This document shows, one piece after another, positions 33,958 through 52,674 of a stretch of DNA of 64,000 bases. A program made the position numbers and the translations under genes. Each line of letters starts with the position of its first letter. The first letter of the stretch is position 1. The notes beneath the pieces were generated by a model that was not told the DNA's origin, did no database searches, and saw only the letters and a list, made by a program, of their open reading frames with translations. This DNA is from an uncultured candidate division Zixibacteria bacterium (lineage in GTDB: Bacteria > Zixibacteria > MSB-5A5 > UBA10806): contig CAWDFP010000006.1 of NCBI GenBank assembly GCA_963801605.1, forward strand, positions 1,664,879 through 1,728,878, in the 5' to 3' direction.

Positions 33958-34009
33958 TAAATATTGACATATTTTGACAATTGCATATCTTCTGCCTGAG
34001 GCTACGAAA

Positions 34010-35590: not shown

Positions 35591-36902
35591 TAGCATTATC
35601 GTTTCCTCATCGGGAAATGGCAGCGCCCTGCAAACCCTTACCAATGCCGTTCCAACTTCCCTTAAGGGGGTGTCGGTTGGAGCTGGTATTCGAGCGGCTA
35701 CTGCAGAATTTCAAGTGGTGCCCGGTGCTGTGGGGCGATTCGAACTGGCCGGATATCCTGACTTGGTTGTTGCCGGCGATCCCTTTCCTCCAACCAGAGT
35801 CAATATTTTTGATATTTTGGGAAATATTAAGACCAATTTTGATGGTTGGATTTATTTTGAATGCGACGATCCACAGGCAATACTCCCTTGTGTTATATCA
35901 TCGCCCTGTCATCTACAGGGTGGAGTCTACAATGTCCCCGCAGGCGCCATATCGCTTCGAACCGCAGGCGTACAATCTATTGTGGCCACGGATGGAAGTC
36001 ATTCCACTCCGTCAAATGCTATTCATGTCGCTCCTTCAACTATCAGCCAATTTACTCTTACAGCCACAACATCTATAGCGGCAGGGACTCCCTTCGGCGC
36101 ATCCGTAAGCGAAGCCCGAGACATTTGGGGAAATTTATCAAATGGTACGATAGCCATTTCTGCGGCTTCGGGCGGCGGACCGTCGCCAAATGGCACTTTA
36201 CCGAATTTTGCTCCTGTTACCGTCGTATCCGGATTAGGAATTGCCTATCAAACCTTATACAATGTTAATATCACGGTTCTCAGGGGAACACTCGATAGCA
36301 TATCCGCGCTAACCGATCCGATTTCAGTCGGCCCGGGCGCCTTAGGCGGTTTTGATTTGACGGTTTCATCGCCTCAAGTGACCGAAATACCTTTTAGAAA
36401 TGCGGCCGGGCTAACCGCGCGCGATCGTTATGGCAATTTGAAAACCAATTTTGATGCCTCTCTTGATTCCGTGGTAATATCATCCACGGGGGGAGGCCTG
36501 ATGAGCAATAATATTTTGCGATCTCCGGGCGATTTTATAGGCGGTATCGCTAATCTGGTAAATACGGGCACTACCTATCATGGTCCCGGCGGTTTAATGT
36601 CGTTCCGGGCAACATCCCGTTCAGGTAATTCCGGCTTATCCAACCAGGTTGATATGAACGCCATCCAGTGTTCAAATTTCATTATCGATCAACTTTCGGT
36701 AGCTCAGGGCGATACCGTAACCGGTACTATCTCGGTAGATAATGTAGCCGGTAGAAATGTCAGCATCACAAATCTATATGTGTTCGATGGCACTGGATGG
36801 TCACCGCAGCTCGAACCTGATTCTCTGTTACCCGCATTATTGGCCCGGACGAAACTAAAATATTTGGATTCCGACTTCCAATTCCGGATATCCTGCCGAT
36901 AG
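35529..36902 (+). CDS. giant surface protein, segment 2 of 4 (Big_1-like repeats)
   Basis: Continues the repeat (...DSIPPTFNSIIVSSSGNGSA parallels the later ...SGGGPSPNGTLPNFAPVTVVSGLGIA). Modules of the form PGxxxxFxL...AGxPF...DxxGN. Confidence 0.75.
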   Translation: MWFPIRPAAEVHPDSIPPTFNSIIVSSSGNGSALQTLTNAVPTSLKGVSVGAGIRAATAEFQVVPGAVGRFELAGYPDLVVAGDPFPPTRVNIFDILGNIKTNFDGWIYFECDDPQAILPCVISSPCHLQGGVYNVPAGAISLRTAGVQSIVATDGSHSTPSNAIHVAPSTISQFTLTATTSIAAGTPFGASVSEARDIWGNLSNGTIAISAASGGGPSPNGTLPNFAPVTVVSGLGIAYQTLYNVNITVLRGTLDSISALTDPISVGPGALGGFDLTVSSPQVTEIPFRNAAGLTARDRYGNLKTNFDASLDSVVISSTGGGLMSNNILRSPGDFIGGIANLVNTGTTYHGPGGLMSFRATSRSGNSGLSNQVDMNAIQCSNFIIDQLSVAQGDTVTGTISVDNVAGRNVSITNLYVFDGTGWSPQLEPDSLLPALLARTKLKYLDSDFQFRISCR

Positions 36903-36949
36903 GAACGCACTATCTGATTGCAGCCGCGCACGGCGCTTATGACCAGGAC

Positions 36950-37642
36950 GTGGTTTCCGATACTCTGTCTGCTTTCCCGGATTCGGTTCAGGTAAGAGCC
37001 CGATCGATCATCTCATATGTTTCCGGTTCTCTGCATCCTGATACGCTCTCTTCCGGTTCCACTTATTCTTTGAATCTGCAACTTATAAATGTTGGAGCCG
37101 CGTCGCTGGCCCTTTATGATTCCTCATATATTTATTTTTCCGACGGTTCGAATAATTATAAAGCCGATATATCGGCCCCGGCTTATTTGACTCCAAATAA
37201 TCCAGTTCTCATAACATTTGATGCGGCGCTCGTCCCGCCAGGATTTACTCCCGGAACTTACACTCCTGTTTTCCAATATTTTGCCAATGAAAATGATCAT
37301 TTCCGTTCGGGACAGGTTATTTTATCTGATCAGATACTAATTCAAAGCGCTCCTGAGATTTCATTTCACGGCCAGCTCAATATCCACAGCCTGGTCGCAG
37401 GACAAATTGTTTCGTTTGCTTTGGATGTTCTTAACAGCGGCCAGGCGGATTTCATCATTAACCATCAAGCCACCAGAATATCCCTCAGCGATTCCCAGCG
37501 TGAGTTTGTCGCTTATTCCGACACAACCAATGGAGTAAGAACGGATACGCTTCATAATGGGGTAACGACATTCCATTTCGCGCCAACGGAATTTCCATCT
37601 AATTTCACATACCGGTATGTATCTTCCTTTAGTTACCTTTGA
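36950..37642 (+). CDS. giant surface protein, segment 3 of 4 (CARDB-like repeats)
   Basis: This frame is already open from 36821 (...GPDETKIFGFRLPIPDILPIGTHYLIAAAHGAYDQDVVSDTL...), overlapping the end of segment 2. CARDB-like pattern YSLNLQLINVGAASLAL. Confidence 0.7.
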   Translation: MVSDTLSAFPDSVQVRARSIISYVSGSLHPDTLSSGSTYSLNLQLINVGAASLALYDSSYIYFSDGSNNYKADISAPAYLTPNNPVLITFDAALVPPGFTPGTYTPVFQYFANENDHFRSGQVILSDQILIQSAPEISFHGQLNIHSLVAGQIVSFALDVLNSGQADFIINHQATRISLSDSQREFVAYSDTTNGVRTDTLHNGVTTFHFAPTEFPSNFTYRYVSSFSYL

Positions 37643-39923
37643 CGGACGGCAAAATGGTTACGACACGAGCTTCACTTTCTATCTCGGGATCGATTCTGTA
37701 TGGGTAATGTCTCCGGCTCTGATACGCATCGATTCAACTAATACCATTTCTCGTAACGCACCTTTTGTAAACATTGCTCAGCCCTGCTCGATCAAAGTTA
37801 CCATTGAAAATTTGGGATGGGAAAGGGCTGACTCCTTTTATATTCACCTGGCCACCGATGGCGCGTCTCAATTTCCAGATTCCATGCTTGTATCTTCGCT
37901 CGATGGCCGCCATAATCAAAATATCGTATTCCACTTAGCCGCTGGAGCATCATCGAATCCCAACGAGATCTTTAATAGCTCCGTTTCCGGAGGAAAAGGA
38001 AACTTAAGCGGGAATCCCCTCCAAATCGGGCCCCCGCTCGATAATAATGCTCTCCTGATTACTGAAATTCCAGCCGACTTAGCTCTTTCTTCAATTAATA
38101 TCATTGGTCCGCCCGGTGCTCTCGATAGCACTATCTCCATCGAACAGCCGCTTACTGTTTCGGTTACGGTGCGAAATTTGGGTGAGGCCGATATTTCCCA
38201 ACCAAGAATTCTGACTCTATATCCGGGGGATGCCAATTGGGGAGTTGATTCTCTGCAGCGCGATTACATTCTTGGCCAGCCGGTGATCTGGCATCTGACT
38301 GCGCCCCCAATCGCTGTGGATTCCGCAGGGTTTTCGATCGGAATCTCCGGCAGCCCAATAGACTTGAACGACGGCTCGCCGGCCATCGGACCGAACGGTG
38401 TCTCGCTGATATGGTTTGCTATAGAAAACAGAGCATCGATAGACCACTCTGCTTCAATTACGGAGCCTGCCGGAGCCGCTGACGGTATATTGTCAACGGA
38501 TCAAACTATCATCGTTCGCGACATTTTGAGTCCGCACGGACTTTACCGAAGCAAGGCTGTTCAGTTAATCCTTCCCGACGGTTTCACAACTCAGGATTCG
38601 CTTGTTAAATATCCATCATCAGATACAGCATTCTGGCATCTGCGGGCGCCTTCCGCGGCCACTGTCGATACCGCTAATATCGCATGTTGGATTTTTGACC
38701 TCAACAGGGGAGACTCATCAGAAGCGCCGTCTATTTCAATTCCACTTACAGTAGTCGATGCCGCTGAGCTTCAAATTTCGACAAGTATCATCGGCCCGCC
38801 GAGCGCTCAGGATGGTATCATCGAACCTGGCGGGCATTTTCAGTTTGAGGCCATGGTTAGGAATCTCGGTCAATCCGGAGTCAGCGCCGGCAGGATGACT
38901 ATTCAAACCGGACGCTCCGATATTACCACTGATATTTACAGCAAAAACTTCGTAGTTGGAGAACCAATCGATTGGACTATTAATTTGCCCAACGAGGAAA
39001 TTCCGTTGCCAGTCCCGATTTGGGTTACTATTGATTCCATCCCAATCGAAGAAAATACAAATTTACCGGCTCACGTTTTAATTGATTCCGCCGGCGTTTC
39101 GATAGTAGTCAGAGAGCTTTTCCCCAGACTGGTGCTGGCGGGTATTACTTCGAATCATTCAGGTTCAGCTTTCAAAGGTCAGCAGTTGGGTTTTGCAACT
39201 ATCGATCTACAAAACCGTGATTTCGGCGGCAATTTTGATATTGGAATAATGAGCCTTTCGGTAATAGTCAACAATAATCCGGATTTGCCTGCCGGACAGC
39301 TTCTTTCCAGTGCGACTTTAGGATTCGGTTCTGAAAGCACTATCTCCGGGATATTCCAGGGCGATACGATCCTATTTAGTCAATTTGATACCTTGATGTT
39401 AGGTCCATCGCAGACAATATCCTTTAATCTTAATTTTGAAATTAATCCCGCCACTTCAGTTCGAGATTTTACCGTCCAATTTGCCTGGAATTTTGTGCAG
39501 GCCGGGGTGTTTGAAAACGGCACATTTGTGGAAAATATAACGCCAGTTATGCCCCGGGGCGAATCGGTAAGTTGGCAGAGTGAACCATCAGCGATACTTG
39601 AGCCGAACTTTACGGCATCGCTTTCCAGCTATCCTAATCCTTTCAGTCCTCAGGATGGCGGTACGACAATTGGATATTTTCTACCAGCAGCTTCAAATCT
39701 TGAAATTAGGATATTTACCCTCTTAGGCGAACTGGTTTGGACTAAAACTATATCAGCAGCCGATCCGTTAGGCGCTGCCGGTCTCCATAGCGGTTCAAAT
39801 GCGCTTCTATGGAATGCTACCAACGATGTCGGCAACGAAATCCGCTCGGGTGTTTATATCTGTATGGTTAGAAATTTAACTTCAGGGGAGGAGGCAAAAT
39901 TCAAAATCGCAGTTGTAAAATAG
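37617..39923 (+). CDS. giant surface protein, segment 4 of 4 (CARDB-like repeats and FlgD-Ig/T9SS-type C-terminal domain)
   Basis: Repeats such as IKVTIENLGWERADSFYIHL, LTVSVTVRNLGEADIS, FEAMVRNLGQSGVSAG. C-terminus SSYPNPFSPQDGGTTIGYFLPAASNLEIRIFTLLGELVWTK...SGVYICMVRNLTSGEEAKFKIAVVK. Confidence 0.8.
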   Translation: MYLPLVTFDGRQNGYDTSFTFYLGIDSVWVMSPALIRIDSTNTISRNAPFVNIAQPCSIKVTIENLGWERADSFYIHLATDGASQFPDSMLVSSLDGRHNQNIVFHLAAGASSNPNEIFNSSVSGGKGNLSGNPLQIGPPLDNNALLITEIPADLALSSINIIGPPGALDSTISIEQPLTVSVTVRNLGEADISQPRILTLYPGDANWGVDSLQRDYILGQPVIWHLTAPPIAVDSAGFSIGISGSPIDLNDGSPAIGPNGVSLIWFAIENRASIDHSASITEPAGAADGILSTDQTIIVRDILSPHGLYRSKAVQLILPDGFTTQDSLVKYPSSDTAFWHLRAPSAATVDTANIACWIFDLNRGDSSEAPSISIPLTVVDAAELQISTSIIGPPSAQDGIIEPGGHFQFEAMVRNLGQSGVSAGRMTIQTGRSDITTDIYSKNFVVGEPIDWTINLPNEEIPLPVPIWVTIDSIPIEENTNLPAHVLIDSAGVSIVVRELFPRLVLAGITSNHSGSAFKGQQLGFATIDLQNRDFGGNFDIGIMSLSVIVNNNPDLPAGQLLSSATLGFGSESTISGIFQGDTILFSQFDTLMLGPSQTISFNLNFEINPATSVRDFTVQFAWNFVQAGVFENGTFVENITPVMPRGESVSWQSEPSAILEPNFTASLSSYPNPFSPQDGGTTIGYFLPAASNLEIRIFTLLGELVWTKTISAADPLGAAGLHSGSNALLWNATNDVGNEIRSGVYICMVRNLTSGEEAKFKIAVVK

Positions 39924-39928
39924 CGCTT

Positions 39929-41749
39929 TTGGCTGTGGGATTTATCCTTTCCCTGACCTCTCTTGCTTTTTGCCAGGGTGACGCCGGACGCGAGTCGCCG
40001 TTTTCGCTGGGTGCCGGCGCTCGCGGTATGGGTATGGGACGGTCGTTTGTCTCGTTAGGCGGGGATGCGTCCTCCGCATTTTCTAATCCGGCTGCAACCG
40101 CGACGATTGACCGTAGCGAGTTCATGGCTTTTCACACCTCGCTATTTATGAGCACCAATTATGATTGCCTGGCGCTGGCTCATCCGATAGGTGTTCTGGG
40201 AGTCTTTACCGTTTCGGCTGGACGGTTAGGGACTGGTAGTTTTACCGGACGCGATGCATATAACCGTCCCAACCAGGAAATTTCCGCATCCAATACGCAT
40301 CTGGGTTTATCATACGGCCGTGACGTAGGACGCGGTTTTGCCGCTGGCCTAACGCTAAAGGGAGTGGGGCAAGAGATTGGAAACAACTCCGGATACGGGT
40401 TTGGCCTGGACCTGGGCTTTCAGTATCGTCCAACAATGGCTAAGGGGCTGATTTTAGGGGTAGCATTTAACGATCTAATTCGTCCAAGTATAAAACTAAT
40501 TAATATTAAAGATAAATATCAAACCGAATCACGATACGGCATTTCATATAACAGGAAATTTTCAACCAGTGTTGCCGCCACCGGGGTATTCGAGGTTGAT
40601 AAAATCTCGGGAAGAAAAACGCACATTCACCCTGGCCTGGAATTTGCCTTCTATAACGATTACGCCCTTCGTATAGGTTATGATAAAGATCGCCCCACAT
40701 TCGGGGCCGGTATCGCCTACAGCGTTTTCCGTCTTGATTATGCTTACGAGGATATTCAGTATCTGGGCGGAAGTCATCGAGTTTCTTTGAGTATCTCTTT
40801 CGGCAAATCGGTTCGACGCAGTCAGACTGAGTTAATTGCCGAAGCAGTCCAGAGCGAAAAAGCAAACTGGCAAAAATCGCTCGATGAGAAAAAGATGTAC
40901 GATTTCGCCGCTTACATATATACCGCGGACAGCCTTCGAGGCCTTAATCAGTATCAGGATGCCATGTTTTTCTATGAACGCGCCCTGGCGTCTAATGAAA
41001 CATCGACCCGCGCCCGTACAATGTCTGACAGCATGATGACGCTGATTGTTGCTAATGCAGCATCTACCGCCCGCGATCAAAAGCGAGAGGACCTCATATC
41101 CAAAAGGGTTACGGCCGCGCTTGATGATTTCAAAGCGGGACGATTCAACGAAGCTATCGACCAATATGAATTGGCGCTTGAAATCGACCCAATGAATAAA
41201 AATGTTTCGGATCTGTTAAGTTCGGCCCGCGCCACTCGCCAGACGGAAATTGATAAAACCAGAGCCAACGCTCATTCCTTGCAGGCTAAAGGAGACTTCC
41301 CCGGCGCTCTGATCGCCTGGAATAGGGTTTTGGTGCTGGAGCCGACTGATCCCGATGCTCTGAGTAATATCGAAATTGCAAAAAAGGCGATTAATGTCAA
41401 CTCCCTGATGGCATCGGCGATAACCGCTATGAGCGAACAAAGATATTCCGATGCCGCCACTTTATTACAGCAGGCTCAAACAATCCGGCCTAACGACTCT
41501 ACCATTAAATCGCTTTTAGCCGAATCGAAAGCCAAGGCCGCACCAGTTACCAGCCTGGCCGATATCAAAGCTAACTCCGAGAACTGGGCTACCTACTTAA
41601 GTGGGCTTGAAAGCTACCAGGCAAGCAACTATAAAAAGGCGCTCGAAAGCTGGGAAAGCCTTCAGCAGTATTATCCGAATAACCCCGATCTTGAAAAGAA
41701 TATAAATCAGGCCAAACAGAGACTTTCTACCGAGGGCGGGAAAGATTAG
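39929..41749 (+). CDS. PorV/PorQ-like outer-membrane beta-barrel fused to a C-terminal TPR domain
   Basis: Signal-like N-terminus. GARGMGMGRSFVSLGGDASSAFSNPAA motif and alternating beta-strand segments up to ...HRVSLSISFGK. The last ~300 aa are TPR-like (ALEIDPMNKNV, VLVLEPTDPDAL, LQQYYPNNPDLE). Start codon uncertain (TTG 39929). Confidence 0.65.
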   Translation: MAVGFILSLTSLAFCQGDAGRESPFSLGAGARGMGMGRSFVSLGGDASSAFSNPAATATIDRSEFMAFHTSLFMSTNYDCLALAHPIGVLGVFTVSAGRLGTGSFTGRDAYNRPNQEISASNTHLGLSYGRDVGRGFAAGLTLKGVGQEIGNNSGYGFGLDLGFQYRPTMAKGLILGVAFNDLIRPSIKLINIKDKYQTESRYGISYNRKFSTSVAATGVFEVDKISGRKTHIHPGLEFAFYNDYALRIGYDKDRPTFGAGIAYSVFRLDYAYEDIQYLGGSHRVSLSISFGKSVRRSQTELIAEAVQSEKANWQKSLDEKKMYDFAAYIYTADSLRGLNQYQDAMFFYERALASNETSTRARTMSDSMMTLIVANAASTARDQKREDLISKRVTAALDDFKAGRFNEAIDQYELALEIDPMNKNVSDLLSSARATRQTEIDKTRANAHSLQAKGDFPGALIAWNRVLVLEPTDPDALSNIEIAKKAINVNSLMASAITAMSEQRYSDAATLLQQAQTIRPNDSTIKSLLAESKAKAAPVTSLADIKANSENWATYLSGLESYQASNYKKALESWESLQQYYPNNPDLEKNINQAKQRLSTEGGKD

Positions 41750-41808
41750 TCTTTACAGGGCTGTCCTGTGCCCTTAAATTTGTATAATAGAGGGGGCGGT
41801 ATAAAGTT

Positions 41809-44733
41809 ATGGCTCGAAAATTAGTAAAAGAAGTATTCATGACGTTCCCCGCAGCGGAGGATCAGCTTGAGGATATCCGCAGCAGTGTGCGAAATGTGCT
41901 TTCCGAGGGTGACCTTTCTGATAAGGCTGCCAACGGCGTACTTTTGGCTATCGAGGAAGCCTGTACTAACGTTATCCGACACGCTTACCTGTATGGACCG
42001 GGTGTTATCAGGATTAAGGTTAAGCTTTATCAAGATAGAGTAATTTTTTCCATATTTGATCGCGGGCGCAAATTCGATTTCGATCATTCCGAGGTGCCCG
42101 ATCTGGATCGTTATATTCGCACCGGCCGCAAGGGTGGCCTGGGCCTTTACCTCATCCGCAAGATGATGGATTCGGTGGAGTACTATTCCCGCGATGGCGA
42201 AAACGAGCTTCGCATGGAAAAACGCTCCGACCGGGCAACTGCCCGCGCCATTCGGCCTCGAGGTATTTCAATTCGTGTTAAATTTGCATTATGGGCATCG
42301 TTAGTTGTTTTCGCCATAGTAGCAGGAGTATATCTCTATTTCCAAAATCAGGTGCGATTAAATGCCGAGCAACGCTTTTTCTCGGGCGCCGATAATAGTA
42401 TCAATTCCTTTGTCTCCGATATTGGCGATAAAACCGTCTTGAGAGACCCCGATCTCATGCGATCCGCCGATACCTGGCTGCGCTCCAACACCGATTTTTC
42501 CTATGTCATCGTAACTGATACCGCCAATATTATTATCGCTAATCCTCTTGCTTCCAGGGATTTTCTGACGGAATATTTCCCTAAACCGGAGGGAGAATAT
42601 AATATCAAATTCGCCCAGGGCGATTCCGCCGGGCAAAAGGAATTTAATTTCAAATTGCCGGTTAAACTTCGCGATCAAGTGGTGGGATATGCATATTTCG
42701 GCCTGATGGAACGGCCTTTGCTTTCGGATATTAGCCAGGCGCGCCGGAATCTTTTTATAATCAGCTTTCTCGGTTTGGTGATCGGTTTTGTAGCGGTATT
42801 TGCGCTTTCGAATTATTTCGTAAAGCCGATTCAAAAGCTCACCGAAGGAGTTAAGCGGATTGGTGAGGGCAATCTCGATCAAACCCTGCCTATCGAAGGC
42901 GCTGACGAGTTTTCCGATATTGCCAGAGCTTTCAACGAGATGACCACCAAGTTTAAAAAGGCCCAGGAAAATGTCGTTGAACAGGAACGCATGCAAAAAG
43001 AAATGCAGGTCGCCCAGGAGATTCAGCACGCTCTCCTTCCGCGCCGTTTCCCCGATATTGAGGGGTACGATATCTCTACGGTCTACCGCGCCGCTAAGGA
43101 TGTGGGCGGTGACTATTTCGATTTTGTACAGATCGATGAGGATATCTTAGGTATCATCGTGGCCGATGTTTCCGGAAAGGGCGTACCCGGCTCACTGGTC
43201 ATGACCATGATCCGCACCGCCCTGCGGCTCGAAGCCAGGGAAAATTATTCGCCAACCGATATCCTGGCGAAAGTCAACCGATTCGTCACCGATGACGTCA
43301 AACGCGGCATGTTTATTACTATCTTCTTTATCACTCTCGATTCCGCCAAACGAACTATCTCATTCGCCTCGGCCGGCCATAATCCGATGATCCTCTACCG
43401 TAAGGATTCCGATTCCTGTTACTTCCTCAATACTCGCGGTATGCCGCTGGGAATAGCGCTTCCCGAAGGAGTTAGTTTCGAGGATTCGCTGGAGTTCGAT
43501 CGCGTCAAACTTAAAAAAGACGATATGCTCGTTCTCTACACCGACGGTATCACTGAGGCTATGAACAAAGCCGGAGAGCTTTTCGGAAACGACAGGCTGA
43601 TCCAATTCATCAAATCTCATTCTGAATTAGCCCCCGAGGAATTTACAAAAAAGCTCGATGCCGAATTGCATAAATTCACCGGCGGCGCCCCTCAGGGTGA
43701 TGATATCACCCTGGTTGTGATTAAAGAGAAGATGATGCTTGATGAGTTAGTTTTCGAAAAACGAAAACGGCTTATCGAGATGGTTGAAAACGAGGGTGTG
43801 CCCCTGGAGCAGGCTTGCGAACAGATGGGAATTTCGCCGTCTACTTATTATAAATATCGCCGTCGCTGGCTGAAGCTTGGGGATGTCGGTCTTCTCAATA
43901 AAAAGTTGCGCGCCGATTCGATTATCAGGCAAATTCCTTATGAGGTTCGAAAAGAGATCTTAAAACTGGTGCGGGAAAATCCCGATCTCGGTACCAAGCG
44001 TATCCTGGATGAACTCAATAGCAGAGGGATTATCGATATTGATCAGCGCGGGATATATGAAGAGATGATTCGCCTCCGGCTTAACACCAGAAAAATGCGT
44101 TTGGAATATGTCGAGAGAGTCGGCGGCCTGACGCCCGAGATGAGCGCCGAACTTGAAAAAGAGCTTCTAAAGGACAACGGTAAAAAAGAAGAGGTCGACC
44201 GCGGCGAATATCTGGAGATCATCAAGAAAAGCCTTGAATCAAAAAAGGGGCAGTTAAGTCCTGCGGCCAGGGAATTGGTTGAGAAGCTTCAGAAAATGGA
44301 GCCGGTTTTAGGGGATACCATCCTTTACGGCGAAATTGCAGCCGAACTAACCAAGCTGCGGGACGGCGAAGATATTGCCAGGCTATTTGAAAGTATTATT
44401 CTCAAAATGGCCAATATGACCAAAGAAAAGGCAGAAAACGAAGCAGCGGCTGCGCAGATCGCGGAGCGTCAGGAACAAGCTCCGCATGCCCCCACTGTCA
44501 AAGCTAATGGTATAATTGCCGCGTTGAATTCCGAGGCAATCCCAACGGAAACTGAACCTGAACAAGGATCGTCTGAATCTACAGTAGATTTATCCGAATT
44601 AAGCAAGGAAATTTCGCCGATAAATATAGTAGACTCAGCCTTAAAGATTGAGAACGAAAACGAAGGGGAGGCGCCAGGGTTCGACTGGGAGGAATATTCG
44701 CGCAAGCTTTCTGAGAAACACAAATCGAAATGA
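41809..44733 (+). CDS. fusion protein: RsbW-like serine kinase, 2-TM sensor, HAMP, PP2C/SpoIIE phosphatase, transposase-type HTH module, acidic tail
   Basis: Approximate positions follow. N-terminal HATPase_c_2 motifs (EEACTNVIRHAY, DRGRKFD, GGLGLYLIRKMMD) at 41809-42230. TM helices at 42280-42345 and 42750-42815. HAMP at 42820-42970. PP2C motifs (DVGGDYFDF, VADVSGKGVPGS, SAGHNP, YTDGITEA, DDITLVV) at 43000-43735. HTH (QMGISPSTYYKYRRRWLKLGDVGLLNKK...LGTKRILDEL) at 43780-44110. Confidence 0.85.
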   Translation: MARKLVKEVFMTFPAAEDQLEDIRSSVRNVLSEGDLSDKAANGVLLAIEEACTNVIRHAYLYGPGVIRIKVKLYQDRVIFSIFDRGRKFDFDHSEVPDLDRYIRTGRKGGLGLYLIRKMMDSVEYYSRDGENELRMEKRSDRATARAIRPRGISIRVKFALWASLVVFAIVAGVYLYFQNQVRLNAEQRFFSGADNSINSFVSDIGDKTVLRDPDLMRSADTWLRSNTDFSYVIVTDTANIIIANPLASRDFLTEYFPKPEGEYNIKFAQGDSAGQKEFNFKLPVKLRDQVVGYAYFGLMERPLLSDISQARRNLFIISFLGLVIGFVAVFALSNYFVKPIQKLTEGVKRIGEGNLDQTLPIEGADEFSDIARAFNEMTTKFKKAQENVVEQERMQKEMQVAQEIQHALLPRRFPDIEGYDISTVYRAAKDVGGDYFDFVQIDEDILGIIVADVSGKGVPGSLVMTMIRTALRLEARENYSPTDILAKVNRFVTDDVKRGMFITIFFITLDSAKRTISFASAGHNPMILYRKDSDSCYFLNTRGMPLGIALPEGVSFEDSLEFDRVKLKKDDMLVLYTDGITEAMNKAGELFGNDRLIQFIKSHSELAPEEFTKKLDAELHKFTGGAPQGDDITLVVIKEKMMLDELVFEKRKRLIEMVENEGVPLEQACEQMGISPSTYYKYRRRWLKLGDVGLLNKKLRADSIIRQIPYEVRKEILKLVRENPDLGTKRILDELNSRGIIDIDQRGIYEEMIRLRLNTRKMRLEYVERVGGLTPEMSAELEKELLKDNGKKEEVDRGEYLEIIKKSLESKKGQLSPAARELVEKLQKMEPVLGDTILYGEIAAELTKLRDGEDIARLFESIILKMANMTKEKAENEAAAAQIAERQEQAPHAPTVKANGIIAALNSEAIPTETEPEQGSSESTVDLSELSKEISPINIVDSALKIENENEGEAPGFDWEEYSRKLSEKHKSK

Positions 44734-45473
44734 TCAAATTAGCCATCTTGACAGCCAAAGGCGGTACCGGGAAAACCACAACGGCCATCAATCTGGGCCA
44801 CGGTTTGGCGCTATCCGGAAGGCGTGTGCTGATTATTGATTGTGATCCTCAAGGCTCGGCCTCAGCCGCTTTTGGAATCAATGGCGAACACGGATTGGCA
44901 GATCTTCTCCTGGACGGAAAAGTCGATATATTCCAGGTTCGGCCCCATCTTTATTTGGTACCATCAGGACGAAAACGTTTGGCGGAACTCGAAATCAAAC
45001 TGGCGGCCCGTCCGGATCGCCTGGAACGTCTAAAAATTGCGCTTGCCAGGCTTTCCGGCTGCGATTGGGTTATTTTGGATTGCTCTCCATCAATAAATGT
45101 AGTAAATTTGAATGCCTTAGGTTTTGCCGATAAACTTTTAATACCCTCCTCACTTGATTACTTTTCTCTGGAGGGTGTAAAGTCGACCATGGAGTTGACC
45201 GTCGAATTGGCGGCAAATGGAGCAGGGAAGCTTGAAATATTGGGGGTTTTGCCGACATTTTACGATAAGAGGACAAGCGTTTCGCGTATGGCGCTTGAGA
45301 CCCTTAGAAACACTTATGGCAAAATGGTATTTGATACCGAAATCAGGCTTAATACCGAGATTAAAAAGTCGCAGTGGTATAAAAAAACGGTTTTTGAGTT
45401 CGCTCCCTATTCACATGGGGCTTACGATTACTATAAATTGGCAAAGGAAGTCCTGGAAAGGATACAGGTTTGA
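44730..45473 (+). CDS. ParA/MinD-family ATPase
   Basis: Deviant Walker A KGGTGKTT, IIDCDPQGS. ATGA overlap with the upstream fusion gene. Confidence 0.9.
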   Translation: MIKLAILTAKGGTGKTTTAINLGHGLALSGRRVLIIDCDPQGSASAAFGINGEHGLADLLLDGKVDIFQVRPHLYLVPSGRKRLAELEIKLAARPDRLERLKIALARLSGCDWVILDCSPSINVVNLNALGFADKLLIPSSLDYFSLEGVKSTMELTVELAANGAGKLEILGVLPTFYDKRTSVSRMALETLRNTYGKMVFDTEIRLNTEIKKSQWYKKTVFEFAPYSHGAYDYYKLAKEVLERIQV

Positions 45474-45479
45474 GGGGAT

Positions 45480-46193
45480 ATGAGCGATATTAAAATCTCT
45501 CTCGACAGTTCGGGGCCAAAAGGCGAAATCTCCATCGTCCGCGTCGACGGCGTCATCGATACCATGACCGCTACCGATTTGGAAAAGGTAATGAATTCCC
45601 TTCTAGAACGACGCCGTTATAACGTAATTATCGATCTTGGCGGAGTCGACTACATCTCATCCGCCGGATGGGGTATTTTTATTTCCAATATCAGGGAGAT
45701 TCGTCAGCATTCCGGCGATATCAAACTGGCCAGAATGATTCCCAATGTATATGAAATTTTCGAGTTATTGGAATTTGATAGTATTCTCAAAGCTTTCGAT
45801 AGCGTCGAAAAGGCCAAGACCGATTTCGATGGCATTAAAAAAGCGGTATCTGATGACGAAAGCAAAGAAGCCGTGCCTCAGGCCACAACCAAGATGGAGA
45901 CTAAGATTGTCAAACCGGATACCTCCGGCGTTCCTCAAACTACGAAGCCGATAGATCCCCAGCCCACAGCCAAAACCGAATTTCCTGTTAAGCTTGAGCC
46001 GCATGATGTGGTTATCGAGATGATTTCCAAGGATCCCTTTCTAACTATTTCCGAAATCAAAAGCGAAATTGCCAAAAAACATCCCGAATTGAGGGTTGGC
46101 TGGTGGAAAATCTGGGGGATATTGAAGCGCGAGAAACTTCTTGGCAGGAAAAATCGGTTTCGTAAAGCCCGGCTTAAATCCGGAGGCAATTGA
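45480..46193 (+). CDS. STAS-domain protein (anti-sigma-factor-antagonist type) with C-terminal extension
   Basis: STAS core with the conserved phospho-acceptor context IIDLGGVDYISSAGWGIFI. This is followed by a P/T/K-rich linker and a basic helical tail (VIEMISKDPFLTISEIKSEIAKKHPELRVGWWKIWGILKREKLLGRKNRFRK). Confidence 0.85.
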   Translation: MSDIKISLDSSGPKGEISIVRVDGVIDTMTATDLEKVMNSLLERRRYNVIIDLGGVDYISSAGWGIFISNIREIRQHSGDIKLARMIPNVYEIFELLEFDSILKAFDSVEKAKTDFDGIKKAVSDDESKEAVPQATTKMETKIVKPDTSGVPQTTKPIDPQPTAKTEFPVKLEPHDVVIEMISKDPFLTISEIKSEIAKKHPELRVGWWKIWGILKREKLLGRKNRFRKARLKSGGN

Positions 46194-46197
46194 AAAC

Positions 46198-48039
46198 ATG
46201 TCCAATTCCAGGCTCTGGCTTATAATTTTTTCCCTATTCTTCTTTTGCCTTTTGGCATTCGGGGTGGCGATTGTCTTAAAAACAGCCTGGATCACCGCTT
46301 TAGTAGTCGTACTCGTTTTAGCGATCTCGGCCGTTTTAATAATTTCCTTCAATAAAACTTCGCGGGATTTAGCAATTCTATCGAAAATTACCCAGCCTGT
46401 AAAATCTACAGAGAACATTTTAGCCTTTAGGCTTTTAGCCGAACTTGACCTCTCCGCTATCGAGAAAAAATCGCCGGCCTTGAAAGCCGCTGAATTAATA
46501 AGGGAGAAATTCCAGCTTGAAAGTTTCGCCATATTCTTCCGTGAGGAAGATAAATATATCCCCAAGATTTACTCCGGAATAAACAGGATCGGCCTCGCTG
46601 CGCCGCCAATCCAAAAGCTAAGCCCCGCAATGAAAAGCAATATCAATATTGGGGCTTTGTCCAGTGATGAGAGTGATATCCTGACAGCATTCAAACGCGA
46701 TGGAGTTAATATCGCTTCCTCGATGATAGCCTTCGCTTATTCCTGGAGCCGGATGCACTCGGTTTATCTGATTGCCGACGATTCTCTCGGACGATTTTCC
46801 GAATCGCTGCGAGACTCTGAATTCAACCGCATTTTCTGGCCCGGTCTGGATAATGAATTAAGGCAAAATCAAAAATTTCTGGAAAGAGGGCAGGAGGTTC
46901 GTGAACTTGGCCGCCAGTTGGATCAAGCCAAAAAGGACATTGGCGATTTAAACAGGGAGCTTAAAAATAAGCTTTTGGATCTCAGGGCTTTCGTAAATAT
47001 ATCCAGCGATCTCTATTCGCTTTTCAGTGAAGAAGAGCTGCTTTCCAGGCTCAAACAGATAGTATGTGAAAAGCTTGGCGCCGCTTCAGCCGAAATCCTG
47101 GTACCTTCCGGTGATAGCCGTTTCATTCCCCACGCTGCCGGTGATGCCGGTCAGGCTGCTATGGACCTGTCATTGGATTCCGAATCGGAATTGGCAGAAC
47201 TTATTTCAAAATCGCCTCGCCCCGTGTTACTGCCGTTGGCCGGGTCAGGTTTTAAGCGCAACGAACCTTTCCTTCGAGCAGCCCTGACTTTGAATTTTCA
47301 GATAGCCTCGGCGATCAGAACCTCCGGGCATACGGCTTGTGTACTGATGGTTTCTCAGAAAAAAGATAAGACTCAGTTTACCAATCTCGATCTCGATGTT
47401 TTATATATAATTACCAATATTGCATCACTGGCGCTCGACAATATCCATCAATATTCAACAATAGAAAAATTATCTTATACCGATAGCATGACGGGGATTT
47501 ATAACTACCGATACTTTTACAAACGTCTTAACGAAGAAATTTTGCGCGCCAAACGTTACGACCGTGAACTGGCGCTGGTCATTCTCGACATCGATAATTT
47601 TAAATCCTTTAATGATAATTTCGGTCACCAGGCCGGAGATCTGGTACTAAAGCAATTGTCTGATTTGATTACCAAAACTATTCGTTCAATCGATGTGGTC
47701 AGCCGATATGGAGGCGAAGAATTCTGTATTATCATGCCGGATACCGGTATCGGCCATTGCCAAATATTTATAGAAAGGCTTCGTTCTCAAATTGCGGATT
47801 TTAAGTTTGAATCGAATCTTTTCCAAAAAGGCGGCAGTATATCGGTGTCGGTGGGAGGGGCGGTCTACCCGCAGCACGCTCCCATGCCCGATCGGCTCAT
47901 TTACTGCTCCGATATGGCGCTTCTCAAGGCTAAGGCGTTGGGACGAAATCGGGCTGTGATGTATGAAGCGGATATTTCCTTTGAGTCAAAATCCACGGAA
48001 GGGGGATTTAATGGAAGCCGTCAAGAATCGATGCTATGA
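46198..48039 (+). CDS. membrane-anchored GAF-GGDEF diguanylate cyclase
   Basis: ATG at 46198 (MSNSRLWLIIFSLFFFCLLAF), two TM helices, a GAF-like middle, GGDEF domain with active site RYGGEEF and I-site RSID five residues upstream. Confidence 0.88.
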   Translation: MSNSRLWLIIFSLFFFCLLAFGVAIVLKTAWITALVVVLVLAISAVLIISFNKTSRDLAILSKITQPVKSTENILAFRLLAELDLSAIEKKSPALKAAELIREKFQLESFAIFFREEDKYIPKIYSGINRIGLAAPPIQKLSPAMKSNINIGALSSDESDILTAFKRDGVNIASSMIAFAYSWSRMHSVYLIADDSLGRFSESLRDSEFNRIFWPGLDNELRQNQKFLERGQEVRELGRQLDQAKKDIGDLNRELKNKLLDLRAFVNISSDLYSLFSEEELLSRLKQIVCEKLGAASAEILVPSGDSRFIPHAAGDAGQAAMDLSLDSESELAELISKSPRPVLLPLAGSGFKRNEPFLRAALTLNFQIASAIRTSGHTACVLMVSQKKDKTQFTNLDLDVLYIITNIASLALDNIHQYSTIEKLSYTDSMTGIYNYRYFYKRLNEEILRAKRYDRELALVILDIDNFKSFNDNFGHQAGDLVLKQLSDLITKTIRSIDVVSRYGGEEFCIIMPDTGIGHCQIFIERLRSQIADFKFESNLFQKGGSISVSVGGAVYPQHAPMPDRLIYCSDMALLKAKALGRNRAVMYEADISFESKSTEGGFNGSRQESML

Positions 48040-49093
48040 AGCGATCTTGATTAAAATTGCATTAGCGCTATTTGGGCTGATTTTTATAGGGCAGTTTTGT
48101 GCTTTAGCGAGCGCCTCTGCTCAGGATACCGCCGGCAAACAAGCCCAGGCTAATGATCAAACCGTAAATCAGCCTCAAACCGGTCAGGAATCTTATGTTA
48201 TCGGTAACCTCGATATGCTGTCGGTAGCATTCTGGCAGCAACCGGATCTCAACCGCGATGTTCGAGTTGATGAGAACGGGATGATAAGTTTGCCGGTTAT
48301 CGGCGATATCAAAGCTGCCGGTTTGACGCCTAACGAGCTTTCCAAAAAAATCGTGCAGCAAATGAGTATCTACAACACTCCAGTCTCACAGGCAACGGTT
48401 AATGTCACCGAGTTTAACTCCCGAAGCGTGGTGGTCGCCGGTCGGGTTCTCACTCCGGGCAGCCGCCGATATGAAAAGATACCCGACGTTTGGCAGGTCA
48501 TTCTTGACGCCGGCGGACCTATGTCCGATGCCGACCTTTCACGCGTGACTATTGTCAGGAAAGAGGGCGAGAAATCTAACGTTATCAATGTAGATATATA
48601 TAAGATCATTCAGTCGGGCGACCTTGCTAAAGCTCCTCAGCTTCAGCCGGGAGACCTGGTCAACGTTCCCATATCCAGTTATGGCACGAATATAAGCATG
48701 TCCCTACCCACTCAACCCAGATTTGAAGGCAGAAATATATTTTTCGTCTTTGGACAGGTTGTCGAACAGGGTCCGCGGAACCTTGAAGAGGGAATGGATG
48801 TTTTGGACGGGATTGCGCTTGCCAGAGGGTATACTCCTGATGCCGATCTCAAGCACGTTAAAGTTATAATGAAGGACGCTAAATATTCTAATGTCATAAA
48901 GCTGAATTTGGAAAAGTATATGTCAAGCGGTCAGCCTCCCAGAATAATGCTTCATCCGGAGGATACCATAATTGTGCCCACCCGAAGCAGTTTCTTCACA
49001 ACCGCCATGTCGCATCTGAATACTATTCTGCCTGCACTGGGCACTACGGCGACCCTGGTACTTGTGATAAGAGAAATTCAAAGGAATCCCTGA
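48011..49093 (+). CDS. polysaccharide export protein (Wza family: Poly_export and SLBB domains)
   Basis: ATG at 48011 after GGAAGGGGG. YVIGNLDMLSVAFWQQPDLNRDVRVDENGMISLPVIGDIKAAGLTPNELSKKI is the Poly_export pattern. Confidence 0.85.
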   Translation: MEAVKNRCYEAILIKIALALFGLIFIGQFCALASASAQDTAGKQAQANDQTVNQPQTGQESYVIGNLDMLSVAFWQQPDLNRDVRVDENGMISLPVIGDIKAAGLTPNELSKKIVQQMSIYNTPVSQATVNVTEFNSRSVVVAGRVLTPGSRRYEKIPDVWQVILDAGGPMSDADLSRVTIVRKEGEKSNVINVDIYKIIQSGDLAKAPQLQPGDLVNVPISSYGTNISMSLPTQPRFEGRNIFFVFGQVVEQGPRNLEEGMDVLDGIALARGYTPDADLKHVKVIMKDAKYSNVIKLNLEKYMSSGQPPRIMLHPEDTIIVPTRSSFFTTAMSHLNTILPALGTTATLVLVIREIQRNP

Positions 49094-49253
49094 TGAACCT
49101 GGCTTATGGTTTTGAACGGTTGGGCATTGAATTTTCCAGCGAACAAAAACCATAATTACCGTCTAAAATGAAATAGCGGGCTTGCGAAAGTTAGAATATT
49201 AATATATACATTTTGATGTATCAGGATAATTATTAAATCTCGAAGGTAGTGCT

Positions 49254-50840
49254 TTGGAAAACGAAAAATCGCAAATAGATTTAAGAAGTTACTGGGCTAT
49301 TCTGGGAAGGCGCAAAGCGCTTCTGATCTTGCCGCTTATGATTGTGCCCCTGGTCGCATTCATCATAACTTATTTTATGAAACCGACCTATGTTTCAACC
49401 GTGTCCATTCTGATTGGCGATACTATGGTTTTACCTACTCCAGTTCAACAGGATGTACAGGGTCGAAACGGCGGATACGATTATCGAAGCGCCCAGGAAT
49501 TGCAGAGTTCTTATCTAAATCAGATCACATCGACGAAATACCTGAAACGCCTTATTGCCGTTCTTAATATCCCGATCTCGGAAGAAGTTAAGCGCATGGT
49601 CGCTTTAACCAAGGCCAATTACCCCGATGTTACTGAAAGCGATCTGGCTGAAAATATCCTTTCCGACCAGCTTCGCAAAAGGGTCATGGTCTCGATGAGA
49701 TCCAACAACCTTATCGATCTCTCGGTTGTATCCATAGATCCGATCAGCGCACGGAAAATGGCGGCGGCCCTGGCAGATATCTTCATTGAAGAGAACCTGG
49801 CATCCGAACTGGCCGGGATTCGCTCCAGTATTTCCTTCTCAGAAGATCAACTGGCATTTTATAAAGATAAACTTAAAGAAGCCGAGGATAAGCTTCGCGA
49901 CTTCAGGCAGGGCATCTTATCATCATCGTTCGGCCAGGATACCAGCTCGATCAATCTCAGGGAGATTGCCTCTGCGGTTCAGACGCTGGATATAGAAATA
50001 TCCAATGAACAGGAACAGCAGGCCGGCCTGCGTTCAGCGCTGGATCAGGAAAGCGTCGATGTTTCCGCATTTACACTGCCTCCCGGAGTCAGCACTCTCA
50101 GGGATAGACTGCTTGGTAATGTCAACCAGCTTGCTAATCTTCTTACAAGTTATTCCTGGCGAGATGCCAAGGTTGTGAGTCTTAATGAGGAGTCCCGCGG
50201 CCTTATCACTGATATTACCACTCAGATTCGTACCTGGGCGGAGCAAAAATATGCCGCATCACCTGCTAATGTACGAGAGACTATCATCGAATATCTCGCC
50301 GGTAATATTGTCACCGATTTTAATCATGCCAAGCGCGCCAGCCTCGATTCATATATAGGGAAAACCAAAACGAAGCTTGGCGAGGACCCGGGAACCGAAA
50401 TTACCTTGCAAAGACTTCAAAGCGAGGTCGACAGTTATAAGAGATTCTATGACCTCTTCGTTTCTCATTCCCAGAATGCTGCTATCAACCAATCGGCCAT
50501 AAAAGTTGAGGCCGAGGCTAAATATACCATCATCAGGCCGGCTTCTCTGCCCCTGGCGCCTGATTCGCCAAATAGATTTCGGATTTTTGGCATGGGTATC
50601 GCCTTAGGCCTGGTATTGGGATTTGGCGCTATTCTGACTGTCGAGCTTCTTGATGATTCCTTTAAGAAAATTGAAGATGTGACCCACTACTTGAAACTGC
50701 CCGTCATCGGAACCATCCCAAGAATGGAGCTTCCCTTTGGCAACTCCTCGAAAAAAAGATTTCCGATAATAATTGGCTTGGGCATCAGCATGGTGCTCAT
50801 CATGATTATAGTATTCTTACATTTTAAGAAGAACGGATAA
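49254..50840 (+). CDS. polysaccharide chain-length determinant (Wzz/GumC-type PCP, no kinase domain)
   Basis: N-terminal IDLRSYWAILGRRKALLILPLMIV TM helix, long coiled periplasmic region, C-terminal TM helices. TTG start in the track. Confidence 0.8.
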   Translation: MENEKSQIDLRSYWAILGRRKALLILPLMIVPLVAFIITYFMKPTYVSTVSILIGDTMVLPTPVQQDVQGRNGGYDYRSAQELQSSYLNQITSTKYLKRLIAVLNIPISEEVKRMVALTKANYPDVTESDLAENILSDQLRKRVMVSMRSNNLIDLSVVSIDPISARKMAAALADIFIEENLASELAGIRSSISFSEDQLAFYKDKLKEAEDKLRDFRQGILSSSFGQDTSSINLREIASAVQTLDIEISNEQEQQAGLRSALDQESVDVSAFTLPPGVSTLRDRLLGNVNQLANLLTSYSWRDAKVVSLNEESRGLITDITTQIRTWAEQKYAASPANVRETIIEYLAGNIVTDFNHAKRASLDSYIGKTKTKLGEDPGTEITLQRLQSEVDSYKRFYDLFVSHSQNAAINQSAIKVEAEAKYTIIRPASLPLAPDSPNRFRIFGMGIALGLVLGFGAILTVELLDDSFKKIEDVTHYLKLPVIGTIPRMELPFGNSSKKRFPIIIGLGISMVLIMIIVFLHFKKNG

Positions 50841-50845
50841 TAATT

Positions 50846-51964: not shown

Positions 51965-52674
51965 ACGATAGAAAGCAGATGTCATTATTATCGGTTTATC
52001 ATAAAGAATCGGCGATCGGCACCGAGTTTCGTCGCTTGTATTCCAATATCAGAAGTAAAAGTCAGGGTCGGAAAATTCAAAACCTGATGATTACATCCGC
52101 TACGGTGGGGGAGGGCAAATCGCTGACCAGCAGTTTGCTTGCCATAACCATAGCCGAGCTTACCAAGCTCAAAGTGGCGTTAGTTGATTTTGATTTGAGA
52201 CGCCCCAAGATTTCAAGTTATTTCGGTCTGGAGAACGACGGTGGAGTAGCTGACGTTTTAACCGGCAAAGCGTCGTTAAAAGCGGTCTCACAAAAGACTA
52301 CTGCCCCGAATTTGACTGTTATTCCCGCCGGGCATCTGGATAAGCTTCCCACCGACGTACTTGAACATGAGCATGTCGCCAATTTCTTTCAAGAATTGAA
52401 ATTCTATTTCGATCAGGTTATAGTTGATACCCCTCCTATTATTCCCGTTTCAGATCCCATGCTCCTGGCCGAGCATGTCGATAGCGTCATTCTCGTGATA
52501 AGGGGAGGCTCCACCCAAAGAGATGTCGTCAGCAGGGCGTCCAATCTTCTGATCAACGCCAATATTGATATCCTTGGAGTGGTTCTTAATGATTTCGAGG
52601 AAGTCCTACCGTATTATTACAAGGAAAAATATTACGGGTATCATTATTATCACAAAGATTTAAAGATTGAATGA
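51961..52674 (+). CDS. BY-kinase (CpsD/CapB-type tyrosine autokinase)
   Basis: Walker A TVGEGKS, Walker A' VDFDLRRP, Walker B VIVDTPP, C-terminal tyrosine cluster YYYKEKYYGYHYYH. ATGA overlap with the TPR gene. Confidence 0.85.
   Translation: MNDRKQMSLLSVYHKESAIGTEFRRLYSNIRSKSQGRKIQNLMITSATVGEGKSLTSSLLAITIAELTKLKVALVDFDLRRPKISSYFGLENDGGVADVLTGKASLKAVSQKTTAPNLTVIPAGHLDKLPTDVLEHEHVANFFQELKFYFDQVIVDTPPIIPVSDPMLLAEHVDSVILVIRGGSTQRDVVSRASNLLINANIDILGVVLNDFEEVLPYYYKEKYYGYHYYHKDLKIE

Follow-up and report, generated by a model that had tools for sequence, protein, structure and literature searches.

Which task is performed by a protein that carries a serine kinase in front of a membrane-spanning sensor and a serine phosphatase behind it, and that continues into a helix-turn-helix (HTH) module of transposase type? 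The question is raised by a gene at positions 41809..44733 (+) of a 64,000-nucleotide stretch of DNA, here called the window, from an uncultured candidate division Zixibacteria bacterium (GenBank assembly GCA_963801605.1, contig CAWDFP010000006.1, positions 1,664,879 to 1,728,878 of the forward strand). We consider it likely that the product is a bifunctional, membrane-bound partner-switching enzyme that acts on a STAS protein encoded by the second gene downstream and that, in Zixibacteria, feeds a diguanylate cyclase and an exopolysaccharide (EPS) cluster. The fusion gene and its parts are:

41809..44733 (+): fusion gene for kinase, transmembrane (TM) sensor, HAMP domain, PP2C phosphatase, bipartite HTH and tail (open reading frame (ORF), Pfam, NCBIfam, homologues, AlphaFold2 (AF2))
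41845..42222 (+): RsbW/SpoIIAB-type GHKL serine kinase domain, residues 13-138 (Pfam HATPase_c_2, RsbW fold, conserved boxes)
42280..42342 (+): TM helix 1 (TM1), residues ~158-178 (hydropathy, AF2)
42343..42747 (+): extracytoplasmic loop, residues 179-313 (sub-threshold sCache_3_2, AF2)
42748..42816 (+): TM helix 2 (TM2), residues ~314-336 (hydropathy)
42805..42948 (+): HAMP domain, residues 333-380 (Pfam, AF2)
43144..43725 (+): SpoIIE/PP2C (PPM) phosphatase domain, residues 446-639 (Pfam, PDB sequence and fold searches)
43741..44133 (+): bipartite HTH module, residues 645-775 (Pfam, NCBIfam, AF2, Foldseek, representative search)
44134..44679 (+): variable tail, residues 776-957 (alignment, charge, AF2)
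44680..44730 (+): conserved C-terminal peptide ..FDWEEYSRKLSEKHKSK (motif counts)

The reading frame begins with ATG and encodes 974 amino acids; a Shine-Dalgarno-like run (GAGGGGG) is present ~12 nucleotides upstream of the start, and the protein is conserved from Met1 on among its homologues. A search over 5.8 billion proteins, with 120 matches listed, yielded at least 113 further full-length homologues among these matches, with 44-81% identity and the same set of Pfam domains; the named ones among them are from candidate division Zixibacteria. Alignments of n=114 full-length proteins were used throughout, also as the basis of the full AF2 model (mean pLDDT 78, HTH region about 90). The transposase type of the HTH might speak for an artefact, i.e. 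an assembly chimera, which an earlier note on this DNA had named as a possible refutation, or a read-through of separate genes. Such an artefact is practically excluded by the homologues from independent assemblies (more than 110 with the same architecture), by an identical gene order in three relatives and by an even composition, since neither GC content nor skew shows a discontinuity across the gene. A decayed IS481 insertion fused to a phosphatase gene was likewise excluded: no rve/DDE remnant is present, the HTH is under purifying selection (13 residues invariant in the 114 homologues) and the fusion occurs in several labelled phyla. The chimera and the transposon remnant are thus both refuted by the complete architecture of the homologues and the gene order of the three relatives.

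The kinase domain matches Pfam HATPase_c_2 (residues 13-138, E 7e-27) as well as the RsbW and SpoIIAB models, its fold superimposes on RsbW (6m37, TM-score 0.90) and its sequence match in the PDB is again RsbW (6m36); a HisKA domain had no Pfam match in the fusion protein. Residues N54 and H58 of the N-box, D84 and G86 of the G1 box and G109-G112 of the G2 box are invariant in the 114 homologues. In a second set of 16 proteins from at least six labelled phyla (Zixibacteria, Latescibacterota, Eisenbacteria, Calditrichota, KSB1 and others) N54, H58, D84, G86, G109, G110 and G112 are kept in every member, while E49 of the N-box, invariant in the 114 homologues, is an Asp outside Zixibacteria. The phosphatase domain (Pfam SpoIIE/PP2C, 446-639, E 2e-51) is equally well preserved: the metal-binding aspartates D435 and D438 (GGDYFD), D453 (ADVSGKG), D579 (TDG) and D631/D632 (DDIT) are invariant in both sets. 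Its fold resembles that of SiaA (6k4e, TM-score 0.78-0.80), of Pseudomonas aeruginosa RssB, of SpoIIE and of RsbX, and the top PDB match by sequence as well as by fold is Rv1364c (3ke6). Judged by their sequence motifs, kinase and phosphatase are both intact, and a pseudo-enzyme was rejected on account of the invariant catalytic motifs.

Between the two enzymes lies the sensor. A conserved basic juxtamembrane segment (R156, K158, F159) precedes TM1, and the 135-residue loop between the TM helices is modelled as a confident alpha/beta domain (pLDDT >90), in which a long helix is combined with a PAS/Cache-like sheet. This loop is the least conserved region of the protein; its match to sCache_3_2 (residues 222-312, 22 bits) stays below the cut-off of 28.4, yet the same match is recorded in many homologues. 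TM2 is followed by the HAMP domain (residues 333-380, Pfam E 6e-14) and by a long helix (367-409) that connects HAMP with the phosphatase. Hydropathy, the AF2 model and the positive-inside rule together suggest that the kinase is located in the cytoplasm, the Cache-like domain outside, and HAMP, coiled helix, PP2C, HTH and tail in the cytoplasm again. Most of this had been proposed in the earlier note: kinase, two-TM loop, HAMP and PP2C domain all hold by Pfam/NCBIfam, hydropathy and AF2, every domain that it named is backed by Pfam and NCBIfam, its suggested check of the catalytic residues finds kinase boxes and PP2C aspartates intact and invariant, and the peptide strings that it quoted are present in the protein. 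The HTH was correctly assigned to the N-terminal type of IS481/IS3 transposases (Pfam, NCBIfam), and its '~200-aa acidic tail' is roughly right, residues 776-974 having a net charge of -16 with a helical part (776-887), a disordered acidic part (880-957) and a conserved helix at the end. The STAS protein at 45480-46193 that it suggested as partner is the obvious substrate, with an intact acceptor motif and a conserved adjacency.

The features of this predicted substrate are:

45480..46193 (+): STAS protein, 237 amino acids (Pfam, NCBIfam, alignments)
45660..45662 (+): phospho-acceptor Ser61 (alignment to SpoIIAA)
46008..46190 (+): C-terminal basic half-HTH, residues ~177-237 (profile-profile comparison, hidden Markov models (HMM))

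The locus holds three elements of a partner switch, a PPM/PP2C phosphatase with its aspartates, a GHKL kinase with N, G1 and G2 boxes and a nearby STAS protein with an acceptor serine. The STAS domain (residues 15-112, Pfam E 3e-17) scores above the cut-off of the anti-sigma antagonist model TIGR00377 (61.2 vs 53.45); its acceptor motif VDYISSAGWG is invariant in 18 sequences, and Ser61 is aligned with the phosphorylated serine of SpoIIAA and with the DSAG motif of TM1442. Unlike the usual partner-switching STAS protein it is not a single domain. In STAS proteins encoded beside fused enzymes, the STAS domain is followed by a variable linker and, at the C-terminus, by a conserved basic domain of ~60 residues, which is homologous to the second half of the enzyme HTH (~715-775; hhalign probability 97.4%, E 1.5e-11), a relationship supported by reciprocal HMM searches. 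This half-HTH is present in 14 of 14 free-standing STAS proteins beside a fused enzyme and in none of 16 beside unfused PP2C and kinase genes. On these sequence comparisons, the bipartite HTH of the enzyme and the half-HTH of its substrate are a matched pair.

What does this pair do? The module consists of a first half of the HTH_23/HTH_28 type (residues ~650-699) and a second half of the HTH_32 type (~705-775). HTH_23 (residues 650-695, 35.3 bits) and HTH_28 (30.5 bits) exceed their gathering scores; HTH_32 (residues 679-750, 28.3 bits) remains below its own of 33.7. The NCBIfam model of the IS481 transposase (NF033577) aligns to residues 651-763 with its positions 1-112 of 284 at 59.9 bits (cut-off 224), and no DDE/rve catalytic part was found in the fusion protein by Pfam or NCBIfam. 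AF2 predicts two consecutive sub-domains (helices 644-660/666-673/677-695 and 711-723/729-738/746-755/761-771; pLDDT about 95). In a separate model of residues 640-890 (pLDDT 84) the best Foldseek matches are the TnsB DNA-binding domains of CRISPR-associated transposon (CAST) transpososomes and the DNA-bound paired domain of Pax6/Pax5, with a probability of 0.95-0.98 and weak E-values of 0.08-0.2; the full-length model gave PP2C and RsbW matches only. The IS481, IS3 and IS630 transposase N-termini, TnsB and Pax share two consecutive three-helix HTH sub-domains with the fusion protein, which differs from these transposases by the lack of DDE/rve; by this resemblance, its HTH may bind DNA.

This resemblance raises the possibility of a direct DNA output, an idea of the earlier note and one of several readings, in which the HTH, alone or together with the STAS half-HTH protein, would constitute a membrane-tethered transcription regulator that needs no sigma factor. 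All characterised relatives of the module bind DNA, both the HTH region of the enzyme and the C-terminal part of its STAS substrate are basic, and the recognition-helix pattern S676/T679/Y681/Y683/R686 is kept in Zixibacteria, Latescibacterota and Eisenbacteria; moreover, in the lineages other than Zixibacteria the STAS gene is the last of the operon, which contains no other output gene. However, the basic residues R652, R686 and R701 of the first half are lost in Calditrichota and KSB1, and in one protein (L017) the first half is largely missing. The relatives of the module outside this family do not point to regulators either. A word-index search with the HTH region alone returned no matches; an exhaustive search of representatives returned 586, among them the HTH at about residues 650-800 of proteins of 770-1510 amino acids in ~30 clusters (50% identity). 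Ten of the nearest non-family relatives were scanned: a DDE domain was found in none of the ten and a recognised regulator domain in none, six carry a tandem (HTH_23-HTH_32)x2 fused to a processive polysaccharide synthase of glycosyltransferase family 2 (GT2), and four are short HTH-only proteins. Considering in addition the weak Foldseek E-values and the lack of a shared intergenic motif in a weak test described below, we regard a direct DNA output as unlikely. With relatives that lack DDE and six of them attached to GT2 synthases, the module resembles a transposase DNA-binding domain that has been domesticated and turns up repeatedly on membrane proteins involved in matrix synthesis. The GT2 fusions (P0149, P0156, P0165, P0171, P0180, P0147) comprise 760-1320 amino acids, are cellulose- or poly-N-acetylglucosamine-synthase-like and have the HTH tandem at the N-terminus; the labelled ones are from Woesebacteria and Aminicenantes, and the HTH-only protein P0140 is labelled Microgenomates.

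Alternatively, the HTH fold may have passed beyond DNA binding and serve docking alone, the second half on the enzyme pairing with the domain on the STAS protein so that the substrate is held between kinase and phosphatase. This would fit the strict co-occurrence described above and the fusion of module relatives to membrane synthases, as well as the conservation across phyla, which within the module is highest in the second half (P725, G728, N759, R764). The Latescibacterota-type proteins agree with it too: STAS domains are covalently attached behind the enzyme HTH there, and the half-HTH is missing from the free STAS genes, as though the link had replaced docking. Against this stands that the full bipartite HTH is retained even where STAS is covalently attached, and that the strongly basic STAS C-terminus would suit nucleic-acid binding equally well. 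Pure docking is possible but rather doubtful. Our best guess, within the partner-switching model, is that the HTH pair keeps the substrate with its enzyme, either because both would bind the same stretch of DNA or by direct mutual binding.

Between the fusion gene and the STAS gene one further gene is located:

44730..45473 (+): Soj/ParA-type deviant Walker-A ATPase (ORF, Pfam, NCBIfam, Soj alignment)

Its first codon shares bases with the stop codon of the fusion gene (ATGA), and the STAS gene starts six bases after its end. The ATPase aligns over its full length with Thermus thermophilus Soj (PDB 1wcv, E 6e-42), keeps the deviant Walker A motif KGGTGKTT and the DxDPQG motif as DCDPQG, and is covered by the BcsQ model over positions 1-241 of 246; it scores below NCBIfam cut-offs (ParA_partition 85.5 vs 180 bits). 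It shares these features with Soj/ParA and BcsQ. In contrast to Soj/ParA systems, no ParB-like gene was found at the locus in scans of the window, and the candidate partner is a peptide at the C-terminus of a signalling enzyme. This peptide follows the pattern [FI]DW[ED]xYx[KR]KL in 108 of the 114 homologues, whereas 12% of control windows contain the pattern. Both Latescibacterota-type proteins, whose loci include the ParA gene, carry it as well; ten of ten proteins from loci lacking this gene do not. Judging by this co-occurrence, the Soj-like ATPase may dock to the peptide, which would probably recruit it in those lineages that have the ATPase. Nucleoid binding by the ATPase was considered and is not claimed, because the arginines of the Soj PRNVR motif are not conserved. 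We regard a further reading as quite unlikely. In it, the bipartite HTH of the enzyme and the half-HTH of its STAS substrate would bind DNA as a pair under the control of phosphorylation; the switch would then act directly on DNA, or on the positioning of the nucleoid together with the Soj-like ATPase, again independent of a sigma factor, and the same HTH would have been reused on polysaccharide synthases of the candidate phyla radiation (CPR) as a general matrix regulator.

The likely output in Zixibacteria is suggested by the neighbouring genes:

39929..41749 (+): protein with a PorV/PorQ-family beta-barrel N-terminus and tetratricopeptide repeats (TPR), an upstream neighbour conserved across phyla (Pfam/NCBIfam)
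46141..48039 (+): membrane diguanylate cyclase (ORF, Pfam, NCBIfam, hydropathy)
47963..53875 (+): polysaccharide export and assembly genes (NCBIfam/Pfam)

The cyclase has two N-terminal TM helices and a cytoplasmic region of ~370 residues; its GGDEF domain contains both the GGEEF signature and an RxxD I-site. SiaD belongs to the NCBIfam models that match the cyclase best. The mechanical start of its ORF, TTG 46141, overlaps the STAS gene by 53 nucleotides; the true start is likely ATG 46198, directly after the STAS stop codon (MSNSRLWLII...). The export cluster consists of a Wza-like exporter, a Wzz-like chain-length protein, a TPR protein, a bacterial tyrosine kinase (BY-kinase; eps_fam, above its cut-off) and a priming glycosyl-phosphotransferase. 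In three Zixibacteria relatives the order PorV/TPR, fusion gene, ParA, STAS, GGDEF, Wza, Wzz, TPR, BY-kinase is identical over ~19 kb (47-64% identity). A scan for promoters and terminators gave no signal above shuffled expectation; its sole suggestive promoter site was TTTACA-17-TAAATT at 41752-41780.

The kinase domain has its best matches in RsbW and SpoIIAB, and the kinase domain of HsbR binds RpoS (PMC6482189). One could therefore assume a classical anti-sigma factor, whose RsbW-like domain sequesters a sigma factor encoded elsewhere until relieved by the STAS protein, as in RsbW/sigma-B or HsbR/RpoS. However, no sigma-factor gene turned up among the neighbour genes scanned in the window or listed and scanned in the relatives' loci, and the EPS-linked SiaB and SypE have no sigma target (PMC7647112, PMC3610818). 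An anti-sigma function is improbable.

How far does the fusion extend beyond Zixibacteria? A true fusion was found in metagenome-assembled genomes (MAGs) labelled Zixibacteria, Latescibacterota, Eisenbacteria, Calditrichota, KSB1, FCPU426 and Krumholzibacteriota, and in a few possibly mislabelled bins. A much wider spread of the kinase-to-PP2C fusion beyond the FCB-type candidate phyla (Planctomycetota, Sumerlaeota, Rhodothermales and others), as suggested by a GTDB scan with residues 1-639, was rejected because an ORF-level BLAST census revealed that tblastn pieces had been joined across separate PP2C, STAS and kinase genes. These organisms have a separate kinase gene beside TM-HAMP-PP2C and short STAS genes, a SiaABC-like layout; that PP2C, STAS and kinase stand side by side also where they are unfused supports the partner-switching model. 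The conserved core comprises three genes, for the PorV-like/TPR protein, the fused enzyme and the STAS protein. Among the loci compared, the ParA gene is limited to the Zixibacteria and Latescibacterota types, and GGDEF and EPS genes follow in Zixibacteria only. The region behind the HTH differs by lineage: three STAS domains in the Latescibacterota type, TPR in Calditrichota/KSB1, nothing in Eisenbacteria and the helical/acidic tail in Zixibacteria. Long variants of 1440-1510 residues are L004:7965-12371 (labelled Latescibacterota), L007:7902-12233, P0131 and P0145 (labelled Krumholzibacteriota). In L004 and L007 Pfam finds three STAS domains behind the HTH, so that a single chain unites kinase, phosphatase, HTH and STAS. 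P0131 and P0145, which are about as long, are named 'anti-anti-sigma factor' and 'anti-sigma factor antagonist' in their source. The Calditrichota/KSB1-type variants L013, L015 and L045 end in TPR repeats.

Taken together, we propose that the fusion protein is a dimeric enzyme of the inner membrane. The intact catalytic motifs, the intact acceptor motif and the conserved adjacency point to a phosphorylation cycle at Ser61 of the STAS protein, which would be phosphorylated by the kinase and dephosphorylated by the PP2C domain. The external Cache-like domain presumably sets the balance between the two activities, with the kinase coupled to TM1 by R156, K158 and F159 and the phosphatase coupled to TM2 by HAMP and the helical linker. 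The target in Zixibacteria would most likely be the adjacent membrane GGDEF cyclase, controlled by the phosphorylation state of the STAS protein, and cyclic di-GMP (c-di-GMP) from this cyclase would in turn control the Wza/Wzz/BY-kinase EPS cluster. This route is proposed by analogy to SiaC-SiaD and HsbA-HsbD and from the conserved gene order.

Several points weigh against this model. The loci compared from outside Zixibacteria lack a GGDEF gene behind the STAS gene, and for this reason the cyclase cannot be a universal target. With the kinase attached to TM1 and the phosphatase to TM2/HAMP, a single shift upon ligand binding could drive the two activities oppositely; this control through TM1 and TM2 is pure conjecture from the architecture. 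The structural matches of the HTH to TnsB and Pax have weak E-values, the ATPase lacks the conserved PRNVR arginines of Soj, and intergenic DNA of the window and of four Zixibacteria loci shares no 11-mers (at most one mismatch), in a weak test that covered few and short gaps. Finally, all source organisms are uncultured MAGs known from sequence alone, and the phylum labels are those of the depositors, so that some bins may be mislabelled.

How does the enzyme compare with known systems? The presence of both antagonistic enzymes in one polypeptide, emphasised in the earlier note, is borne out by the intact motifs; in itself it is not new, given SypE, HsbR, CrsR and Rv1364c. SypE of Vibrio fischeri combines an N-terminal kinase, a receiver (REC) domain and a C-terminal PP2C domain in one polypeptide (PMC3610818), and HsbR and CrsR are REC-PP2C-kinase proteins (PMC6482189). 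Modules of PP2C sensor, kinase and STAS protein that drive diguanylate cyclases are also established (SiaABCD, HsbRAD, BgrUWVR; PMC7647112, PMC9239204).

The closest parallel in domain order is SypE/SypA, with an N-terminal RsbW-like kinase, a regulatory module and a C-terminal PP2C domain, a single STAS protein as substrate and a location within an exopolysaccharide (syp) locus; the conserved kinase Asn corresponds as well (SypE N52 to N54 here; PMC3610818). SypE is, however, cytoplasmic and has a central receiver fed by a phosphorelay, whereas the present enzyme has TM1, Cache-like loop, TM2 and HAMP, which suggests direct sensing; moreover, SypE lacks HTH and tail, and SypA lacks a C-terminal domain. 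Response_reg (REC) had no Pfam match in the fusion protein, which sets it apart from the SypE type and from the HsbR/CrsR type. The latter, HsbR/HsbA/HsbD of P. aeruginosa and CrsR/CrsA of Shewanella, also unite PP2C and RsbW-like kinase in one polypeptide that acts on a STAS antagonist, and HsbA also acts on a diguanylate cyclase (PMC6482189). They differ in their order (REC, PP2C, kinase), in being cytoplasmic and phosphorelay-driven, in a kinase domain that binds RpoS too and in the lack of an HTH.

In contrast, the sensor half resembles the SiaABCD system of P. aeruginosa. SiaA is a TM-HAMP-PP2C protein and the best NCBIfam match over residues 317-637, and kinase, STAS-like target and GGDEF cyclase are encoded in one operon that controls aggregation (PMC7647112). 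The kinase SiaB is, however, separate, Sia has neither HTH nor ParA, and the acceptor of SiaC is Thr68. Since the scores remain far below the equivalog cut-offs (SiaA NF038263: 95.3 bits vs 700; SiaD NF038266: 147.7 vs 290), the Sia proteins are to be regarded as analogues and remote homologues rather than orthologues. Rv1364c of Mycobacterium tuberculosis (PDB 3ke6) is likewise a multidomain fusion of PP2C and RsbW-like kinase, and its phosphatase-kinase-STAS arrangement is similar to that of the Latescibacterota-type relatives, in which STAS is fused in cis. Unlike in the present enzyme, PP2C precedes the kinase in Rv1364c, whose PDB title names RsbU and RsbW domains only. It is cytoplasmic, its sensor is of another type, and it is not known to carry an HTH.

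Bifunctional kinase-phosphatase polypeptides and sensor PP2C-kinase-STAS modules controlling cyclases are therefore known already. New is the placement of a kinase before TM1 and a phosphatase after TM2 around a transmembrane sensor, and new are also the conserved bipartite HTH on the enzyme, with a homologous half on its STAS substrate, and the ParA-linked C-terminal peptide. In the literature searched, the coverage of which is incomplete, neither this architecture nor a STAS-HTH protein was found described; this is absence of evidence only. The STAS half-HTH, the overlap with the Soj-like ATPase gene, the GGDEF and export cluster and the spread over candidate phyla had not been mentioned in the earlier note.

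Partner switching is one of the main schemes of bacterial Ser/Thr signalling, and the way in which it connects to c-di-GMP and biofilm matrix is being actively studied (Sia, Hsb, Syp, Bgr). A single membrane protein that carries sensor, kinase and phosphatase, the latter two on different TM helices, offers a compact model for a kinase/phosphatase ratio that is set by a signal. The family is conserved over poorly known candidate phyla, beside a PorV-like protein of the outer membrane and, in Zixibacteria, an EPS cluster; these sediment and soil bacteria are therefore likely to use it as a main regulator of their aggregation, and it probably controls slime (exopolysaccharide) production. The general picture of partner switching is left unchanged by the family; an HTH pair acting as DNA-directed output, if true, would raise its significance.

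As the PorV/TPR neighbour is conserved across many labelled phyla, the periplasmic sensor may monitor a process at the outer membrane or in secretion. A PorV/TPR gene is found upstream of the PP2C sensor gene in loci L001-L005, L007, L008, L010, L012, L013, L015, L017 and L021, and also in L026, L027, L030, L032, L048 and L054; loci with a separate kinase gene are included.

An antisense ORF of 223 amino acids, 42358..43029 (-), is found inside the region coding for sensor and HAMP. It is probably spurious, because it lies wholly inside conserved coding sequence. Upstream, four consecutive or overlapping ORFs (538, 457, 230 and 768 amino acids) at 33974..39923 (+) have only a faint CARDB match. 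In the three relatives a single giant gene (1410-1876 amino acids) takes their place between the Big_5 gene and the PorV/TPR gene, and the four ORFs may reflect sequencing errors or a surface-protein gene that is split or frameshifted.

The polysaccharide genes have their best matches in models of the XrtA/PEP-CTERM system, mostly below cut-off (export protein, chain-length determinant, PrsT-like TPR protein, tyrosine autokinase and EpsB-like transferase), and the clusters of the relatives add a DUF3473 polysaccharide deacetylase. On a larger scale, all genes of the ~34 kb at 28060..62405 are encoded on the plus strand. Besides the regulatory module and the EPS cluster, this stretch holds genes for DUF4384/PEGA, TPR and Big_5 proteins, the giant protein, a PEGA-DUF5683 protein, a 717-residue fn3 protein, a TMEM260-like glycosyltransferase and a prepilin peptidase, and it looks like one large cell-surface 'island'.

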